Of a DNA stretch of 64,000 nucleotides, positions 21,572 through 31,825 are shown piece by piece. Below the pieces are notes generated by a model. It worked only from the letters and a program-made list of their open reading frames with translations, ran no database searches and was not told where the DNA came from. Origin of the DNA: Ostreococcus lucimarinus (lineage: Eukaryota); the NCBI GenBank assembly GCA_000092065.1, contig CP000585.1; one strand, written 5' to 3'. Each line of letters starts with the position of its first letter. The stretch's first letter is position 1. A program made the translations under genes and the position numbers.

Positions 21572-23086
21572 ATGGCGCGCGCGAAGATGACGTCGAGGCG
21601 CGCGCCCGGCGGTAAGGTCCGCCGTCCGCAGTTCACCGTCGGGTCGCCTCGCGCGCCCGCGCGCGATCGCGTCGGCGCGAGCGACGCCGCGCGGCGCAAC
21701 CGCACGCTCGCGCGCGTCTTCGCGCTCGGCGAGGATTGGACGGTGGCGGACGCGCGCGCGCGCGAGCGAGCGTTCCTCGCCGAGTGCGACGACGGCGCGT
21801 GGACCGGGCTGACGACGTACGACGCGCTGGAGGAACACGGGCTGTTCACGGCGGTGGTGGAGGCGGGATGGCACGAATTGTGTCGAGCGCTCGGCGTCGA
21901 CGAGGACGAACGCGCGGCGTACGGACCGTGGCGGTACGTTCCGGGACGGATTTCGCACGAAGCGGTGCCGTGGGATGATTTCGACGAAATGTATTGGAAG
22001 CACAAGGCGAAGGGACTCGTGGACGACGATTTGATCGAGACTTTAGAAGACGAAGGCGACGAAGACGAATACGTCACGACGCACGCCAAGCTTTCTCGCG
22101 ACGACGTGGCGTCGCTTCTGGAGGAGTACGGTAAGCGTTACCTGTTCCTCATCGTCCGCGAATTTGAAGGCGCCGACCACGTGGCGGCGAAGAGCCTAGC
22201 GTTGGACGCCAATATGGAGTACGTGCGGCACCAGCACGAGCAGAAGAGCGCGCACCCGGGCGTGCCCATGGCGAGGCTTTTAGATCCGAAAGAGCTCTCT
22301 TTCGACGAAATCAAGGCTATGTATAAGGCGGCGGGGCTGCGCGTAGGAAAGAACGCCAAGCGCGAGTCGCTTCTCAGAGAACTCGTCATTGAGGACAGAG
22401 CGCTCGAGCTCGACGCGTACGGAAAGGCGTTCGCAAAAGTTGTGAAGCGGCTCGACGTGGAGACCAAAAAGTTGCAGGACAAAATAGAAAAAGCCGTGAA
22501 CAAAGCCGTCAAGTCCGTGATCATCGACAAGTGGGACACCGATCGCAAAAATGATTTCCTCGCCACTCACGACCATTGGAGCGACGAGCGAAAGAAGGCT
22601 TGGCACGATGGCGTTGCCAGTCGATTGAAGAAGACGCAGAACGCGAAAAAGGTGCAGCCGAAGACGACGAAAGCGCAGCCGAAGACGACGAAAGCGCAGC
22701 CGAAGACGACGAAAGCGCAGCCGAAGACGACGAAAGCGCAGGCTAATAAACCGGCGAAACCCAAACGAAAACGAAACGATCCGTTGGTCACGTCGGACTT
22801 CGCCGTCGGGATGGAATTGTACGTCCGAGGCGCGAAAGGCGAGACGTGGCACGCCGAGGTGACGAAAGTGCGACCGTCGAACGCGAAGTGCCCGATCGAG
22901 GTAGCTTGGCTCGTCAAGCAAAGCGATGATGCATACGTGTACTGGGACTGCGCGCACAGAGACGTGATCGATTTGCGCACCGTCCTCGAGACGCACGCGC
23001 CCGGGCACTTTCCAGCCGGGAAACGCGCGCGGTGCGTCGCGTGCGAGGCGGCGAAAACCACGTGCGCCAAGCGCGCGAAGACGTGA
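21572..23086 (+). CDS. Hypothetical nuclear protein with a SAP-like motif, 4-5 tandem KAQPKTT repeats and a C-terminal basic region.
   Basis: ATG at 21572. LSFDEIKAMYKAAGLRVGKNAKRESLLRELV resembles a SAP DNA-binding motif. The repeat block is (T)KAQPKTT x4-5. No clear family. Confidence 0.55.
   Translation: MARAKMTSRRAPGGKVRRPQFTVGSPRAPARDRVGASDAARRNRTLARVFALGEDWTVADARARERAFLAECDDGAWTGLTTYDALEEHGLFTAVVEAGWHELCRALGVDEDERAAYGPWRYVPGRISHEAVPWDDFDEMYWKHKAKGLVDDDLIETLEDEGDEDEYVTTHAKLSRDDVASLLEEYGKRYLFLIVREFEGADHVAAKSLALDANMEYVRHQHEQKSAHPGVPMARLLDPKELSFDEIKAMYKAAGLRVGKNAKRESLLRELVIEDRALELDAYGKAFAKVVKRLDVETKKLQDKIEKAVNKAVKSVIIDKWDTDRKNDFLATHDHWSDERKKAWHDGVASRLKKTQNAKKVQPKTTKAQPKTTKAQPKTTKAQPKTTKAQANKPAKPKRKRNDPLVTSDFAVGMELYVRGAKGETWHAEVTKVRPSNAKCPIEVAWLVKQSDDAYVYWDCAHRDVIDLRTVLETHAPGHFPAGKRARCVACEAAKTTCAKRAKT
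22650..22748 (+). repeat. 21-nt coding tandem repeat (aagcgcagccgaagacgacga), about 4.7 copies, encoding KAQPKTT.
   Basis: Direct reading of the sequence at 22649-22748. Confidence 0.9.
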
Positions 23087-25641: not shown

Positions 25642-26961
25642 ATGGAGCGCGAGTCGGCGCCGATACGCGCCGCGCGTCGAGCGTTCGGCGCGACGGACGA
25701 CGACGCGCGCGCGAGCGCGAGGGACGGCGCGCGCGCGCGCGGGCGAGGGCCAACACCAAAACCAAAGGCGGAGCTCGCGCGCGGAGGCGCGCTGGCGAGC
25801 GCGCGGAGCGCGACGCTGGCGCTGGCGAGCCTGTGCGCGATCGCGGTGGTGAGCGCGCGACTGGACGCCGCGTCGAGGGGCGCGCGGGCGAGCGCGGTGG
25901 TGGTGGGAACGACGACGAGGACGAGGACGACGGCGACGGCGACGCTGCGCGAGGACGAGGCGGTGGAGCCGGAGTTGCGCGTGGGCGATCGCAGCGTGGC
26001 GTACGTCGCCAAGGGATGGAACGCGGAGCGAAGATTGATAGGGGACGATAAGATCGAGGCGATTTGGGAAGGACCGGCGGCGGAGAACGCGGCGGGGGAG
26101 TTTGAGGCGACGAAGCCGAAGGGCGCGCTGTTGGCGCTGCACGGTTGTCATCATAGCGCGAAGGACTTCTTCGCGACGAACACGAAGTGCTCGCAGTGTC
26201 GAGGACTTGCGCAAGAAATGGCGATTACACGCACGGCGCTGAATCGAGGATACGTCGTGTTGGCGATTTCGTCGTTGGGGACGTGTTGGAGCAAGGACAT
26301 CGACGCGCCGCGCGTGCAGGCGGTGTTGGACGTCTTTTACAACGACACCGCGCTGAGTGACTTGCCATTGTTTGCGTTTGGTGCGTCGAGCGGTGGTTCG
26401 TTTGTGGGAGCGATGCCGCAAATGCAACTGACGCCGAAGGCGGCGGGTTTAATTATTCAAATCGCTCCGGGACCGACGGCGTCGGGCGTCGTCGGCGAAG
26501 TTTTGGCGGATTACCCGCCGACGGTGTTCTCGCACATGCCGCGCGACGCGCGCACCGCCGAGTTCATCGCAGCGTCGATCGCAGACTTCCGCAACGCCGG
26601 CGTTCGCATAATTGAATCTCGTCTAGAGCCGAGAGCGATCGACGACGCATATTTCTACGAACAAAGTTTTGGACGAGTCTCTGAAGAGGAGAGCGCGGCG
26701 ATGGTCGCTTCTCTTCGCTCCTTTAACTTGATCGACGCCCAGGGCTTGCTCACGGAGGATCCGCGTTTGTTCGACGACGATCATATCATCATGATCAAAC
26801 GACACGCACCGGAGTGGGATAGCTTGCTCGCCGACCAGAGCGATACGCGCGAGTTATTAAACGTCGCGTACGCCATGCACGAGCTCAGCGCGCAGGACTT
26901 TAGCAAGAACTTTGCGTGGCTCGTTCGTTCGCACGCGCGCGTCGCGCGCTCGACGTCTTAG
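25642..26961 (+). CDS. Secreted/membrane-anchored alpha/beta-hydrolase (esterase/PHB-depolymerase-like).
   Basis: Signal anchor ALASARSATLALASLCAIAVVSA, HG oxyanion motif LALHGCHHSAKDFF, and nucleophile elbow FAFGASSGGSF. ATG at 25642, in frame with the track ORF from 25117. Confidence 0.7.
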   Translation: MERESAPIRAARRAFGATDDDARASARDGARARGRGPTPKPKAELARGGALASARSATLALASLCAIAVVSARLDAASRGARASAVVVGTTTRTRTTATATLREDEAVEPELRVGDRSVAYVAKGWNAERRLIGDDKIEAIWEGPAAENAAGEFEATKPKGALLALHGCHHSAKDFFATNTKCSQCRGLAQEMAITRTALNRGYVVLAISSLGTCWSKDIDAPRVQAVLDVFYNDTALSDLPLFAFGASSGGSFVGAMPQMQLTPKAAGLIIQIAPGPTASGVVGEVLADYPPTVFSHMPRDARTAEFIAASIADFRNAGVRIIESRLEPRAIDDAYFYEQSFGRVSEEESAAMVASLRSFNLIDAQGLLTEDPRLFDDDHIIMIKRHAPEWDSLLADQSDTRELLNVAYAMHELSAQDFSKNFAWLVRSHARVARSTS

Positions 26962-27008
26962 TTCGATTGGTGGGTTTTGTAATGACTATCTTGTTCGTAG
27001 AAGTATTA

Positions 27009-28037
27009 TTAATCCGACGAGGTTTTAAGCTTCTGAAACTCTTCGTCCAACTCGTCTGTCGCCGACCGCGTCGACGAGCCGTGCTTCTTCTTTGACAGGT
27101 GTTCGGATACATCGGCGTCGTCCTCGACGTCGTCATCTTTGGACGAGTGGCTCGACGAGTGATGCTTCTTCGACGAAGAGTGCTTTGAAGAGAGTTTCGT
27201 GCTCTTCTCTTCTTCTTCTTCTTCTTCTTCTTCTTCTTCTTCTTCTTCTTCTTCGTCGCGATGGCTATGTTTGGAGTGTTTCGAGTGCTTGGAATGGTGA
27301 TGACTGTGACCGATTTTTGCGACGTAATCGACCCCGGGACACTCTGTGGCGTGTATGTTCAAATCGTCGCACACGGCCGGAGGGCAGTACGGCCAACCGT
27401 CCATGGGATCGTCCACGCTTTTCAACATGCACATTCTACACGGCGTCTCGCCCGGCTTCTGACACGCGCTCGGCACGCCCTCGTGGTTCGCGCACTCCCA
27501 ATCGCGAAAGGCGTGACGCCCGGCGTTACGATTGCCGACATCCGTCGAGCAATCACCGAGATCGTACTTCTTCTCCTTCGATCTCGTCTCCACGCCTTCG
27601 CACCCAGAGACTTCGTACTTGTCGCACACCCACGAGCTACACTTCGCCGTGCCCGACCCCTCTTTCGACGCTTCCGAGCCGGCGAGATGACAAAACTGGC
27701 ACCCGTGCGACCCGACGCAGTTCGACGGCACTCCCTCGTCGTCGGTGCAGTGCTTGTTGTACTGCTGATACAGCCCGATCGCTCGATCGCCGTGCGACGC
27801 GTCGCAATCCACCTTCGGCGGCGGCGGCGGCCGCGGCGGATGATGCGGATGCGGCGGCGGCGGCGTCGGCGGCGGCATCGGCGGCGTCGGCGGCGGCATC
27901 GGCGGCGGCATCGGCGGCGCCGGCGGCGACTCCGCCCCGATCCCGAACCCTCCGTCCCACCCCCGTCGCGCGAGCGCCAGCGCGCCGACGCACGCCGCCG
28001 CCGCCGCCGCGCCGACGCGTCCTCGCCACCGCCCCAT
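27009..28037 (-). CDS. Secreted protein. It has a signal peptide, a Pro-rich (PPMPPPTPP...) stretch, a Cys-rich domain, an HSKHSKHSKHSH stretch, and a (Glu)16 run followed by a Ser/His/Lys-rich tail.
   Basis: Internal ATG at 28037 (MGRWRGRVGAAAAAACVGALALARRGW...) in frame with track ORF 27009..29090, whose upstream 351 aa are Arg-rich artefact. About 16 Cys in CxxC-type spacing. The (TTC)15-16 microsatellite encodes the poly-E run. Confidence 0.55.
   Translation of the reverse strand: MGRWRGRVGAAAAAACVGALALARRGWDGGFGIGAESPPAPPMPPPMPPPTPPMPPPTPPPPHPHHPPRPPPPPKVDCDASHGDRAIGLYQQYNKHCTDDEGVPSNCVGSHGCQFCHLAGSEASKEGSGTAKCSSWVCDKYEVSGCEGVETRSKEKKYDLGDCSTDVGNRNAGRHAFRDWECANHEGVPSACQKPGETPCRMCMLKSVDDPMDGWPYCPPAVCDDLNIHATECPGVDYVAKIGHSHHHSKHSKHSKHSHRDEEEEEEEEEEEEEEEEKSTKLSSKHSSSKKHHSSSHSSKDDDVEDDADVSEHLSKKKHGSSTRSATDELDEEFQKLKTSSD
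27204..27255 (-). repeat. (GAA)n/(TTC)n trinucleotide microsatellite, about 16 units, encoding poly-Glu.
   Basis: tcttcttcttc... run at 27204-27255. Confidence 0.9.
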
Positions 28038-28745
28038 CTCGCGCCCGCGCGCGCGCGCCGCGTCCCCGCCGCGTCCCCGCTCGACGTCTTCGTCCTCGCG
28101 CGCGTCCTCGCGCGCGCGCGCGTCCTCGCGCGTTCGCCGCGCGCGTCCGCGCGTCGCCTCGTCGTCGTCGTCGCTCGCGCTCGATCCCGCGCCCGACGAC
28201 GCGCGCGCCGTCCGCGCGTCGCGCGCCGACGCGCGTTCGCCGCGAAGGAGCGCCTCGCGCTCGTCGCGCGACGACCGCGGCATCCTCGCCCGCGCCGTCG
28301 TCTCGCGCGCGCGACGACGCCGTCGCGATGGTGTTGCGCGCGCGGCGTTACGAAAACCCGTAACACACCGCACACGCGTGCGATCGCGCGCGCGCGTCCC
28401 GTCCCATCGCGCGCCGTATTTAAGCCCCGAGGGACTCGCGCTCGAGTCGCGACTCGTCGACGAGATCGGATCCGTCGATCGCGCGAAGATACGCCCGCAC
28501 ACCCCGACGACGACGATGCTCGCGCGCACGACCGCACCGACTCGCACGACCGCCACGCTGCGCAGGTGCGCGCGAAGCGCGACGCGAATCGCGGCGCGGC
28601 GCGACCGCGCGCGCGACCGGAGACCGAGGACGCGCGACCGGAGACCGAGGACGCGAGGACGAGGGAATCGTCGCGCGAGGCGCGGCGAGGCGAGCGATCG
28701 CGCGCGCGAACGGACGAGAGGACTGACGAGACGCGATGGTGACGA

Positions 28746-29102
28746 ATGAATAGCCGCGTGGCGAAGCAAACGCGCACGGCGAAGCGCGGCGCGCGCGTCG
28801 CGGCGCGCGCGTTCGATGACGTGAACGTCGTGATCTCGTCGGCGAACGCGATTTGCCTGGCGTTGGGACGATTCGTGTTTTTGCCGTACCAACGCGCGCA
28901 AGTCGAACGCGTGGGCGCGCCGACGCAAAACGGACAGACGCACTTCGCGGCGGGCGACTCGCGCGCGGAGGAGGCGTCCTTCATCGTGTCGACGAACGAT
29001 CCGGCTGGGTTCACGATCGTGGACCTGCTCGCGTGGGGGTCCATCGGGCACGCCGTCGGATTTCTCGCGCTCGCGTCCCAGTCGGCGCAAACGATGTTGT
29101 GA
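28746..29102 (+). CDS. PSAG: Photosystem I reaction centre subunit PsaG (PSI-G) precursor.
   Basis: ALGRFVFLPYQRAQVERVGAPTQNGQTHFAAGDSRAEEASFIVSTNDPAGFTIVDLLAWGSIGHAVGF matches PsaG (LAWGSIGH...), not PsaK. ATG at 28746 with a short basic presequence. A longer transit peptide in an upstream exon is possible. Confidence 0.8.
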   Translation: MNSRVAKQTRTAKRGARVAARAFDDVNVVISSANAICLALGRFVFLPYQRAQVERVGAPTQNGQTHFAAGDSRAEEASFIVSTNDPAGFTIVDLLAWGSIGHAVGFLALASQSAQTML

Positions 29103-29202: not shown

Positions 29203-31515
29203 CTACGTGTGAGGCGGGGGGCGAAGAAACTGCCGCGCGTGCGCGCTCAACTCGCCGGCGTTTTCGAAATCCGACGCCGAGACAAAGGCGTTGACGCGCT
29301 CGAGCTTGAGCAAACGCAACGCGTCGGCGTTCAAATCGAGATCGAAATCGTCGTGAAGTTTTGAAATCGTGCGCGTCAACGCGTCGACGTTTGCGAGATC
29401 GGTCTCGTAGGTCAAGTTCACGCACTCGCGCTGGTGCGCTCGCAAGACGCTCGCCGTCGCCTCGTACCATCGCTTGTCCTCTCGAATGAGATTTCTGAAC
29501 GTTTTCTCGATAAACTTCACCCGCACGTTCGCGGACGTGACGTTCGGATCGCGCGCGGTGATGTTTTCCGCGTCGAAAGGCTCGGCAGCCTCTCGAATCT
29601 GCTGGAACGGCGCGTCGCCGTTCACCGCACGCATCGACGACGCGTACATGTCGAGCTTGTTTTCGCGACTCAAGCACAACAGCACGGGGTCTTCCGTAGC
29701 GGCGTCCAAGATGGCGCTGAGAACATCTTCCGAATGTTTGCTCGTCTCGGGCGTTGAATGGATGTGCGCGCCGATGATGGATACGTACACCTTGTCCACG
29801 CCAGCCTCCCACGCTCGGCTCAATACTTCGTTGACGAACTCACCCGGATACGTCAGCGAGGCGTCAATCGTGGCATCCTTGACGCCGATGTCTTGCAAGT
29901 ACTTTCGGAGCTTTGAACGCCAAGACGTTTCGTCGTCTTTGTCGGGGAGTTCGTCCACCGACCACCAATCGCCAAGGGTGATGTAATTCGCAAAAAACGA
30001 ATCCGTTCGCACCTGGCCGTCTCGCTCCCACAACGTGGACGACGTCGGATGATTGGAAGACGTCGCAAGCGCTTCACCGAGAAGTGACGCGCCGCCGCGC
30101 AAAGGCGACGAAGCGAGCACGAGACGGGCTTTTTTATACACGCCCTCGGTTTCGTGCAATCGCACGCGCGTGACGAGCGAGCTCGTAGCCTCGGACGAGA
30201 GCACGCGAACGAAAGACAGCGCCCACTTGTGCACGAGATCTTCATCTGCCGGGATGTTCTTCTCGAGCCATTCCACCACCATGGCTTGTCGCTCTTGATT
30301 CGTGCACCCATCCTGCCAACTCGCGCCGTGAAACGAAAAGTGGTCGATAGCGTACGATTGCGGGTACGCGCTGGCGATCGACGTGCACGGAAGAGTCGTT
30401 TTCCAAAACGTCCCGTCCGCCTCCTCCACGAGCGCGTTTGAGAGCGACAACGGATTCCAATCATCGTTGCCAGATGTCACACGCCGCCACGTCTGCGTCA
30501 CGTACTTAGTGAACGACGATTTCGTACCATCTAAATCGCTCCCATCCACCGCCTTGCCGTTATTCATCATCCACCGCATGCCAGGATCGTTCTTGGCGTC
30601 TTCGTGCGTGACTTGCTTGACGCACGTATCGAACTCATTTTCGCCGCATCCGAGCGGGTACGCGACGTCGCGATCGAGCCTCAGTATCGTGTCTCTCAAA
30701 TCGTTCGCACGAATGATGTGCGACAACCACACAGGACCCGTGATCGCGTTCGCGATGCACCGCTTGCCGAAATCTATGTTTTGCAGGTATCCGTCCGAGG
30801 AGGTGTCGTTGAACAAACTTCGAAACACGCTCGCTCCGGGCGTGAGCGCGCCGAATATCCCAGCGCTAAAGAACCTCGAGTCCCCGGGGTCGGCCACCAT
30901 GAACACCTCCTTGTTCGCCCGCAACGTCTTATGAAACAACGGCGTGATGTCCTTGAACAACTCCACGTTCGTGTCCAAGTACAATCCGCCGTGACGAAAC
31001 AACACCTCGTACTTCATCAAATCCACCAACATCGAATACACGTTCGATCCCGTGAGTTGATGAAACGCCCGCCCGCGCTCGAGCGTCGCCAGCGTAATCG
31101 GAAAGTTCCTCTCATTAATGTCTCCCTCCGTCCACAGCCGCATCTCCCACCCAGCCGCCTCCAACACCCTTCGGTTGCGCTCGAAAATCATTCGCTTCAC
31201 CCCCGGCACCTCGCTCCCGAGCCAAATCTCGTGCGCCACGCGCACGAACGCCCCCGCGTCGCTCTGTTTCGCCAGCATCTCCTCCCTGGCCACCATCCCA
31301 CACACGCCCAGCGTCAGCATCGTCGCCACGACGATCGGATGCGTCGCCCACGTCGTCGTCGCGCGCAGCCAGCCGCGTCGTCGCTCGGGGTGTTGACGCG
31401 TCGTCGCGTCGCCGCGCTCGACGTCCGGCGCGTCATCGCGCGCGCGCGCGAGCAGCGCGAGCGACTCGTCGCCGCCGGCGATCGCCGCCGACCGCGCGCC
31501 GTCGCCGACGCCCAT
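29203..31515 (-). CDS. Large membrane-anchored glycosyltransferase with an N-terminal GT32-like (DXD sugar-binding) domain and an approximately 500-aa C-terminal extension of unknown function.
   Basis: TM anchor IVVATMLTLGVCGMVA. GT32 signature ...FHQLTGSNVYSMLVDLMKYEVLFRHGGLYLDTNVELFKDITPLF. The track start at 31611 is TTG. The first ATG is at 31515 (MGVGDGARS...). Confidence 0.65.
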   Translation of the reverse strand: MGVGDGARSAAIAGGDESLALLARARDDAPDVERGDATTRQHPERRRGWLRATTTWATHPIVVATMLTLGVCGMVAREEMLAKQSDAGAFVRVAHEIWLGSEVPGVKRMIFERNRRVLEAAGWEMRLWTEGDINERNFPITLATLERGRAFHQLTGSNVYSMLVDLMKYEVLFRHGGLYLDTNVELFKDITPLFHKTLRANKEVFMVADPGDSRFFSAGIFGALTPGASVFRSLFNDTSSDGYLQNIDFGKRCIANAITGPVWLSHIIRANDLRDTILRLDRDVAYPLGCGENEFDTCVKQVTHEDAKNDPGMRWMMNNGKAVDGSDLDGTKSSFTKYVTQTWRRVTSGNDDWNPLSLSNALVEEADGTFWKTTLPCTSIASAYPQSYAIDHFSFHGASWQDGCTNQERQAMVVEWLEKNIPADEDLVHKWALSFVRVLSSEATSSLVTRVRLHETEGVYKKARLVLASSPLRGGASLLGEALATSSNHPTSSTLWERDGQVRTDSFFANYITLGDWWSVDELPDKDDETSWRSKLRKYLQDIGVKDATIDASLTYPGEFVNEVLSRAWEAGVDKVYVSIIGAHIHSTPETSKHSEDVLSAILDAATEDPVLLCLSRENKLDMYASSMRAVNGDAPFQQIREAAEPFDAENITARDPNVTSANVRVKFIEKTFRNLIREDKRWYEATASVLRAHQRECVNLTYETDLANVDALTRTISKLHDDFDLDLNADALRLLKLERVNAFVSASDFENAGELSAHARQFLRPPPHT

Positions 31516-31825
31516 CGCCGCGTCGTCTGCCGTCCGCTCGCCGATGGTGTTACGCCGCGCGCGAACTTCGAGGTCGATACGAAACGCCGTCTTGGTTTGC
31601 GCACCATGCAAAAACGTCTCTTCGTCTTCCGAACGCGATCATCGCCCGCCGCGCGCCGCGCGCGCGGCGTCACACGCGCGCGCGCGACGACGCGATCGAT
31701 CGACGCGCGCGCGACGGACGCGCGCGGCGAACGCGCGCGCGGCGCGAGACGACGCGCGGCGCGACGTCGGGGACTCGAATTCGGACGGTTCGGTGAAAGC
31801 CGCGCGCGGCGAGGCGTCGGTGACG

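Follow-up and report, generated by a model that had tools for sequence, protein, structure and literature searches.

The window analysed here, a 64,000-nucleotide (nt) stretch of Ostreococcus lucimarinus DNA (GenBank assembly GCA_000092065.1, contig CP000585.1), contains on its minus strand a protein-coding gene at positions 27009-28283. An original prediction, made from the sequence alone, had placed the start of this gene at 28037 and had described its product as a secreted, Pro-rich and Cys-rich protein. We find that the gene starts at an ATG at 28283. Its product of 424 amino acids (aa) is, with a probability that we put at roughly 0.6, a single-pass type II membrane protein that is sorted by adaptor complexes and is receptor-like, present at the cell surface or in endosomes.

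In the mechanism that we propose, translation would begin at the conserved ATG at 28283, and the first 89 residues, which are charged and probably disordered, would remain in the cytosol with an acidic dileucine sequence, E8-REA-LL13, near the N-terminus. Residues 90-105 would serve as an uncleaved signal-anchor, and the remainder of the protein would be translocated: a polyproline stalk of ~37 residues, two tandem 8-Cys modules, and a tail composed of a His/Lys/Ser stretch, poly-Glu, and acidic residues. Clathrin-adaptor (AP) complexes would read the dileucine signal, and the protein would therefore be sorted or cycled between the trans-Golgi, the plasma membrane, and the endosome or vacuole. 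As in a receptor, the Cys modules would provide a conserved head for a putative ligand, while the loops and the low-complexity tail would present a fast-evolving surface that varies within populations. The parts of the gene, in the numbering of the window, are:

27009..28283, minus: complete coding sequence (CDS), a single exon of 424 aa plus a TAA stop; it begins at the first ATG in the open frame
28281..28283, minus: conserved start codon, ATG in the sister-lineage contigs L001 and L008 and in all 99%-identical contigs; orthologues open with M[PAS]xSS..ERExLL
28017..28283, minus: N-terminal tail, aa 1-89, rich in Arg, Asp and Glu, predicted to be cytosolic
28245..28262, minus: acidic dileucine E8-R-E-A-L-L13 (pattern [DE]xxxL[LI]), aa 8-13, in the predicted cytosolic tail
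28035..28037, minus: internal Met83 codon, the start in the original prediction; ACG (Thr) in L001 and L008
27969..28016, minus: hydrophobic segment VGAAAAAACVGALALA, aa 90-105, predicted signal-anchor or transmembrane (TM) helix
27816..27926, minus: Pro-rich stalk PPAPPMPPPMPPPTPPMPPPTPPPPHPHHPPRPPPPP, aa 120-156, read from the sequence; Tandem Repeats Finder (TRF) reports a repeat at 27816-27928
27600..27806, minus: 8-Cys module 1, aa 160-228, module profile E 6e-21, Cys invariant; includes the hypervariable codon 204 (27672-27674) and codon 208
27339..27551, minus: 8-Cys module 2, aa 245-315, module profile E 4e-24
27261..27308, minus: His/Ser/Lys repeat HSHHHSKHSKHSKHSH; His-rich stretches are also found in other Ostreococcus orthologues, e.g. 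H8-9 in L021-L027
27207..27254, minus: poly-Glu (E16), the microsatellite (GAA)15 GAG; TRF reports period 3 and 17.7 copies at 27203-27254
27012..27206, minus: Ser/His/Lys/acidic C-terminal tail, aa 360-424; ratio of nonsynonymous to synonymous substitution rates (dN/dS) 0.79 versus L008
27009-27011, minus: stop codon, which ends the Ser/His/Lys/Asp tail

Extent of the gene and its start codon

The reading frame of the gene extends without a stop to 29090; the first ATG within it, at 28283, lies 82 codons before Met83, where the original prediction had begun. Since the ATG at 28283 is the conserved one, it is the start codon, and the gene spans 27009-28283, not 27009-28037. The L001 contig, which represents a sister lineage and has 91% DNA identity to the window, carries ACG at the position of 28037 and retains the ATG at the position of 28283; in L008, which belongs to that lineage too, an uninterrupted 414-aa open reading frame (ORF) begins at the upstream ATG and has Thr in place of Met83. 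In an alignment with other Ostreococcus clades no Met is present at this place, and the orthologues of these clades start M-x-S-S-S-(G)-E-R-E-S-L-L-R, compared with M-P-R-S-S-R-D-E-R-E-A-L-L-R in the window. The GC content at the three codon positions (GC1/2/3) of the 246 nt upstream of 28037 is coding-like (0.85/0.70/0.90), and that of the intergenic DNA beyond 28283 is flat (0.72/0.71/0.74). All length differences between the N-terminal tail and that of L008 preserve the frame. The gene is also present on approximately 20 environmental contigs with 99% identity to the window, where it is called at 423-433 aa, and the calls on O. lucimarinus-type contigs start 463 nt from the start of the neighboring PsaG gene.

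Relative to L008 and the window, L001 contains two 1-nt frameshifts, one after the TM segment and one at the 3' end. These were considered as a sign of a pseudogene, a reading that was dropped; because the L008 ORF of the same lineage is intact, they are probably assembly errors. Start codons are also heterogeneous within the population. An additional in-frame ATG, which has no counterpart in the window, lies 16 codons upstream of the conserved start in L003 and L006 (MVLRRRRARETTARAR-MPRSS…), and on some of the 99%-identical contigs such an extra ATG leads to called products of up to 442 aa.

The gene is real and protein-coding, on the strand and in the frame that had been named originally: its 16 clustered Cys are conserved and its CDS has a dN/dS below 1. 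That the ORF arose by chance in GC-rich, microsatellite-containing DNA might be suspected from the several long ORFs that overlap it in other frames and on the other strand, and from the fact that its exact product is absent from sequence look-ups. Thus, no record matched the 342-aa or 424-aa products, three shorter Met starts, or two of the overlapping ORFs, which lie on the other strand and in a second frame of the gene's own strand, respectively. However, the 16-Cys pattern is kept down to 50% identity in a locus that is syntenic next to PsaG, dN/dS values are 0.15-0.33, and there are 46 family profile matches as well as a Mantoniella transcript fragment, so that we give a chance ORF practically no credence. 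A 98%-identical 419-aa protein cluster is also on record.

Predicted topology, sorting signal and tail

Since the gene starts at 28283, the hydrophobic segment is internal, and what had been taken for a signal peptide is more likely an uncleaved signal-anchor that follows an 89-aa cytosolic tail, in a type II protein that is not freely secreted. A start at Met83 would instead make residues 83-105 a cleavable signal peptide and the product a soluble, secreted matrix or metal-binding protein with Pro-, Cys- and poly-E-rich parts. The sequence MGRWRGR-VGAAAAAACVGALALA-RRG does have n-, h- and c-like regions and an A-x-A site, and the composition of the ectodomain is typical for extracellular proteins. 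However, Met83 is not conserved, the upstream ATG and the ExxxLL sequence are conserved in all orthologues and most paralogues together with the frame, the 246 nt upstream of Met83 show coding periodicity, and every other gene call takes the upstream start. In addition, Ostreococcus is naked, with no scales, wall or flagella, and so has no scales or wall to build; the scale association that had been suggested fails on the same ground. Secretion from a Met83 start is therefore improbable, and with the start 82 codons further upstream, as is likely, the signal peptide is lost.

Several features are consistent with the topology of a signal-anchored type II protein. A single hydrophobic segment behind the N-terminal tail is a layout common to ~30 family members. 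The segment has a mean Kyte-Doolittle (KD) hydropathy of 1.73 over 17 aa, and homologous segments in relatives reach 2.0-3.0. Its N-terminal flank, DAARARGREMGRWRGR, contains five Arg and one Glu and its C-terminal flank, RRGWDGGFGIGAESPP, has a net charge of 0, charges that satisfy the positive-inside rule for an N-in orientation. One of the 17 Cys of the protein sits within the segment and the 16 invariant Cys follow it, so the Cys-rich part should lie outside the cytosol, in agreement with the extracytosolic location first proposed for it. N-x-S/T sequons are lacking throughout the 424 aa, an unusual situation for an ectodomain of 300 aa, and glycosylation, if present, would thus be limited to O-linkage, for which the Pro/Ser/Thr-rich parts could offer sites.

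AP complexes exist in Ostreococcus, and we infer that they bind the ExxxLL sequence of the N-terminal tail. An E...LL is present in 29 of the 33 family N-tails, which are phylogenetically non-independent, compared with 0.67 expected from composition-preserving shuffles. It takes the forms EREALL, ERESLL, ETSALL, EKVALL, ERAPLL, ETASLL and ERQGLL, and it is the only element conserved across very divergent subfamilies, whose N-tails cannot otherwise be aligned. The sequence [D/E]XXXL[L/I] is the canonical signal bound by AP sigma subunits in both plants and animals (PMC8905187). In plants, this signal directs both AP-1/AP-4-dependent vacuolar sorting and endocytosis through AP-2 (PMC8905187).

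The low-complexity parts of the ectodomain are present as originally described: the Pro-rich stretch, the His-Lys-Ser stretch and the Ser/His/Lys tail, which also contains Asp and runs up to the stop. Likewise, there are sixteen consecutive Glu, although their codons, said to be a pure (GAA)n run, are only nearly pure (15 GAA and 1 GAG). A Pro-rich stretch occupies the position of the stalk in all orthologues. Green-algal hydroxyproline-rich glycoproteins (HRGPs) combine a polyproline rod with a globular Cys-containing region, and the polyproline rod beside a Cys-rich globular region seen here could be taken for a structural glycoprotein of the volvocine pherophorin/extensin type, in which the rod joins globular domains in an extracellular lattice. 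However, there is no Pfam pherophorin or extensin match at E <= 1, and the Pro tract of this orthologue is PPxPPP interspersed with Met, Thr and His, with no SPPPP-type repeats. Given also the N-terminal membrane anchor, the sorting signal and the absence of a wall in this organism, we judge such a structural role very improbable.

Because the His/acidic tail is absent from orthologues that are ~50-55% identical (L031-L042), including one that clusters with a Mantoniella transcript, it is an Ostreococcus-specific embellishment and not part of the core function. That this tail might bind metal is a guess from its composition. The acidic C-termini of other clades (…KDDE, …DDDE) were considered as a signal for retention in the endoplasmic reticulum (ER) and rejected; they are not K/HDEL and are not conserved.

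The tail is central to the main rival of a receptor-like protein, a tentative reading that we hold to be possible. Here the same type II architecture would reside in a vacuole, acidocalcisome or lysosome-like compartment, where the luminal tail would buffer or store divalent cations (Ca, Zn, Fe, Cu), and the acidic dileucine would drive AP-dependent delivery, as it does for plant tonoplast proteins. Thus, the dileucine motifs of plant VIT1 and NRAMP3/4 lead to the vacuole via AP-1 and AP-4 (PMC8905187). His-rich and acidic tails also recur in paralogue groups (e.g. P0105, P0112, P0117, P0121 and P0125), and the poly-E region has a sub-threshold resemblance to bone sialoprotein (Pfam BSP_II, E = 0.041). 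However, the tail is missing from the more divergent orthologues mentioned above and is the least conserved part of the protein, and storage leaves the role of the conserved, selected Cys modules unexplained. Furthermore, hypervariable loops in the ectodomain suit an exposed interface better than a storage lumen.

The 8-Cys module, its family and its variation

In the receptor-like protein that we favor, the binding head would be formed by the Cys-rich region, which contains 16 of the 17 Cys within aa 160-315. A domain of ~200 aa with about 16 Cys had been noticed originally; what had been missed is that it is a duplication, consisting of two tandem 8-Cys modules. The copies are 32% identical, with the spacing C-x18/19-C-x9-C-x5/7-C-x2-C-x14/16-C-x4-C-x7/9-C, and the module profile finds no match in the 64-kb window beyond these two. 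None of the 16 Cys varies among 8 orthologues, of which the most divergent is 56% identical. Across 61 modules eight Cys and one Gly are invariant, and the consensus is C-x5-D-x3-G…C…GC…C[RQ]FC…WPxCPxxVC…C; presumably each module forms four disulfides. Between lineages the Cys region is under purifying selection (dN/dS of 0.33 versus L008, 0.15 versus L018, 0.17 versus L009 and 0.22 versus L023), and by the same measure the N-tail, stalk and C-terminal region evolve much faster.

Modeling of module 2 by AlphaFold2 with the 61-module alignment gave a predicted local distance difference test (pLDDT) score of 92.0 and a predicted template modeling (pTM) score of 0.79; the whole double-Cys region, modeled with 8 orthologues, had a pLDDT of 37.8. 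A Foldseek search with the module 2 model found no fold match in the PDB (best E 8.2), and the best E in BFVD was 4.8. The module profile reached a best E of 0.31 against all PDB sequences, and Pfam-A contains no match for the window protein (E <= 1) or for 10 relatives (E <= 0.1). Nor was there a Pfam or PDB-sequence profile match to the known Cys-rich domains EGF, TNFR, furin-like/GCC2_GCC3, CFEM, thaumatin or the CXXC of Giardia VSP. The 8-Cys module appears to be undescribed, and its fold is, provisionally, new with respect to PDB and BFVD.

A search of 1.84 billion representative proteins with a profile of the Cys region yields 46 proteins at E <= 1e-3 (22 at E <= 1e-10); among these, P0118, a bacterial repeat protein, seems to be a spurious match. 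Metagenome contigs, scanned for the family, contain 40 loci. The Cys-spacing pattern is shared with relatives in what appears to be a family of ~45 proteins that is Mamiellophyceae-like as far as sampled. Full-length members begin with an N-tail and one TM segment, continue through a low-complexity stalk, which is either Pro-rich or acidic, into two 8-Cys modules, and often end in an acidic or His-rich tail. A transcript fragment from Mantoniella antarctica falls in the 90% cluster of P0100, a protein identical to the more divergent orthologue L032. No family homologues were found on the viral contigs of IMG/VR that were scanned, and so there is no sign of a prasinovirus-borne copy. Literature searches on dileucine, cysteine-rich, proline-rich or transmembrane proteins of Ostreococcus found no description of the family.

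Five of the proteins (P0123, P0127, P0134, P0135 and P0137) form a distant subfamily, in which an E...LL precedes the hydrophobic segment in P0127 and P0134. Each of the five carries a pair of shorter 6-Cys modules (…C..GG.GC.G..GCR.C…C..CVC.K.G..GC) as well as another conserved domain, Cys-rich and C-terminal (…GPVDPLPE..RI…W.Q..FG..Q.C…). The members that were scanned have no Pfam match.

Within the population, amino-acid variation is in marked excess. In the 1026 nt before the repeat, 19 contigs carry 18 segregating variants relative to the window, of which 17 are nonsynonymous and 1 is synonymous, counted on metagenome consensus contigs and not on individuals. By comparison, four neighboring genes on the same contigs have 8 nonsynonymous and 19 synonymous variants (Fisher's exact p = 1.4e-5 versus the target gene), and the Cys region alone has 9 to 0 (p = 2.6e-4). 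Five residues (E, Q, K, G and D) occur in the population at codon 204, which falls in the long module 1 loop (…HLAGS-E-ASK…), and the sister lineage has H there. The residues are H, D or P at codon 267, in module 2, and D, V or N at codon 110. The loop of module 1 is variable in another Ostreococcus clade as well (HLE[E/Q/K]S[R/H]AAK). These variants suggest diversifying or balancing selection on an exposed surface.

The poly-E tract is polymorphic in length, as had been expected: the ~20 environmental O. lucimarinus-type contigs have (GAA)n runs of 11, 13, 14 (on five contigs) and each of 15-23 units. Because the sister lineage has an imperfect GAC GAA GAC GAC GAC GAA GAC GAG (DEDDDEDE) at this place, the pure GAA repeat is a recent expansion. 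In L006 and L051 the length of the GAA run is not a multiple of three, through either assembly errors or frameshift alleles; frameshifts of this kind within the run might represent genuine slippage alleles, with a truncated tail as their consequence.

Several observations weigh against a type II, adaptor-sorted receptor. The hydrophobic segment of the window orthologue is short (16 aa), Ala-rich and, at a KD of 1.73, moderately hydrophobic. It is followed by A-L-A and then RR, an acceptable signal-peptidase site, so that release of the ectodomain is possible. Between the ExxxLL and the membrane there are 76 residues, a greater distance than many characterised lysosomal cargoes have, and the sequence may serve another purpose. 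The polymorphism counts come from consensus contigs, and relaxed constraint might account for the surplus of amino-acid variants, above all in parts other than the Cys modules. Finally, the only expression evidence in the family consists of the M. antarctica MMETSP transcript fragment and one protein with the source label 'merc', which we take to be metatranscriptome-derived.

A more specific version of the receptor-like reading, which we regard as rather unlikely in that specific form, is that the family represents a Mamiellophyceae cell-surface recognition molecule engaged in an arms race, for example as an attachment or entry receptor for prasinoviruses or as a factor in gamete or self-recognition. 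If so, the 8-Cys modules would be the binding head and the dileucine signal the endocytic route, with the loop at codon 204 (E/Q/K/G/D/H) and the length-variable poly-Glu as the escape surface.

Gene neighborhood

Exact look-ups of neighboring ORFs matched several of the genes to proteins of Ostreococcus lucimarinus CCE9901. Exact protein matches include a SAC3/GANP protein (ABO95973) and the gene next to the target:

28746-29102, plus: PsaG/PSI-G (ABO95977), exact protein match

The target gene and psaG are divergent, with 462 bp between the two ATGs, and this adjacency to a PSI_PSAK-family gene, with a SAC3 gene nearby, is also found on L001 (close) and L002 (distant). On its other side the target gene is convergent with a gene for a 439-aa protein (ending at 26961, plus strand), with the stop codons 47 bp apart; at these 3' ends (26961-27009) the 3' untranslated regions (UTRs) either overlap or are extremely short. 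The 462-bp psaG/target intergenic region contains, at 28610-28655, a perfect 21-bp tandem repeat of 2.2 copies (CGCGCGACCGGAGACCGAGGA), which could be a shared promoter element.

Another perfect 21-bp tandem repeat, of 4.2 copies, is present at 22654-22741, inside the gene at 21572-23086 (plus strand; 504 aa, ABO95974), where it encodes a 7-aa unit. The ABO95974 product is 483, 490, 497 or 504 aa long on environmental O. lucimarinus-type contigs, a length polymorphism in steps of 7 aa. Next to psaG, at 29203-31611 on the minus strand, is an 802-aa ORF (770-811 aa on related contigs) with only a faint match to Pfam Gly_transf_sug; it may encode a divergent glycosyltransferase.

Relation to known systems and significance

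DC-SIGN/CD209 and the major histocompatibility complex (MHC) class II invariant chain are type II endocytic receptors with an N-terminal dileucine signal. The protein predicted here resembles them in layout: a short or disordered cytosolic N-tail, with a dileucine-type AP signal and acidic residues, leads into one signal-anchor, after which an extended stalk or neck would carry a disulfide-stabilised, putatively ligand-binding head on the outer or luminal side. Unlike these proteins, it contains no C-type lectin or thyroglobulin domain; its head is the 8-Cys module, which has no Pfam or PDB match, and its stalk is polyproline and not a coiled coil. Like the plant proteins VIT1 and NRAMP3/4 (PMC8905187), it belongs to the green lineage and has a cytosolic acidic dileucine that would be read by AP-1/AP-4. 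However, VIT1 and NRAMP3/4 are polytopic transporters, while the predicted product would cross the membrane once, lacks a transporter domain, and has a large Cys-rich ectodomain. With volvocine pherophorins and extensin-like proteins it shares a polyproline rod and globular Cys-containing domains outside the cell; it differs from volvocine HRGPs in lacking a pherophorin or extensin Pfam match, in its signal-anchored N-terminus, and in coming from an organism without a wall. Bone sialoprotein II (BSP-II) and the sarcoplasmic histidine-rich Ca-binding protein (HRC) have luminal or extracellular poly-Glu and His-rich stretches. The likeness to these is compositional only (Pfam BSP_II, 14 bits compared with a cut-off of 25.1), and the tract here is a young, length-polymorphic microsatellite that is absent from the sister lineage. 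Thus, as far as can be judged from the sequences, the protein would have a familiar receptor-like architecture with, at its core, a lineage-restricted domain not described before.

No free-living eukaryote is smaller than Ostreococcus, which is among the major primary producers of the sea and is used as a model to study how algae and viruses interact. Its surface proteins are, to our knowledge, almost entirely uncharacterised, and homologous recombination is available for the transformation of O. tauri. The gene model is now corrected from that of a secreted protein to that of a predicted type II membrane protein. Two features mark the uncharacterised family that this locus defines: its 8-Cys module is modeled with confidence and is without relatives in Pfam or the PDB, and its adaptor-sorting motif is strikingly conserved. 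Furthermore, amino-acid polymorphism in the ectodomain far exceeds silent polymorphism, unlike in the neighboring genes, and a hypermutable microsatellite lies within the coding sequence. Together, these features make the product a candidate for a trafficked surface receptor, with possible roles in virus susceptibility, in the capture of nutrients or metals, or in mating.

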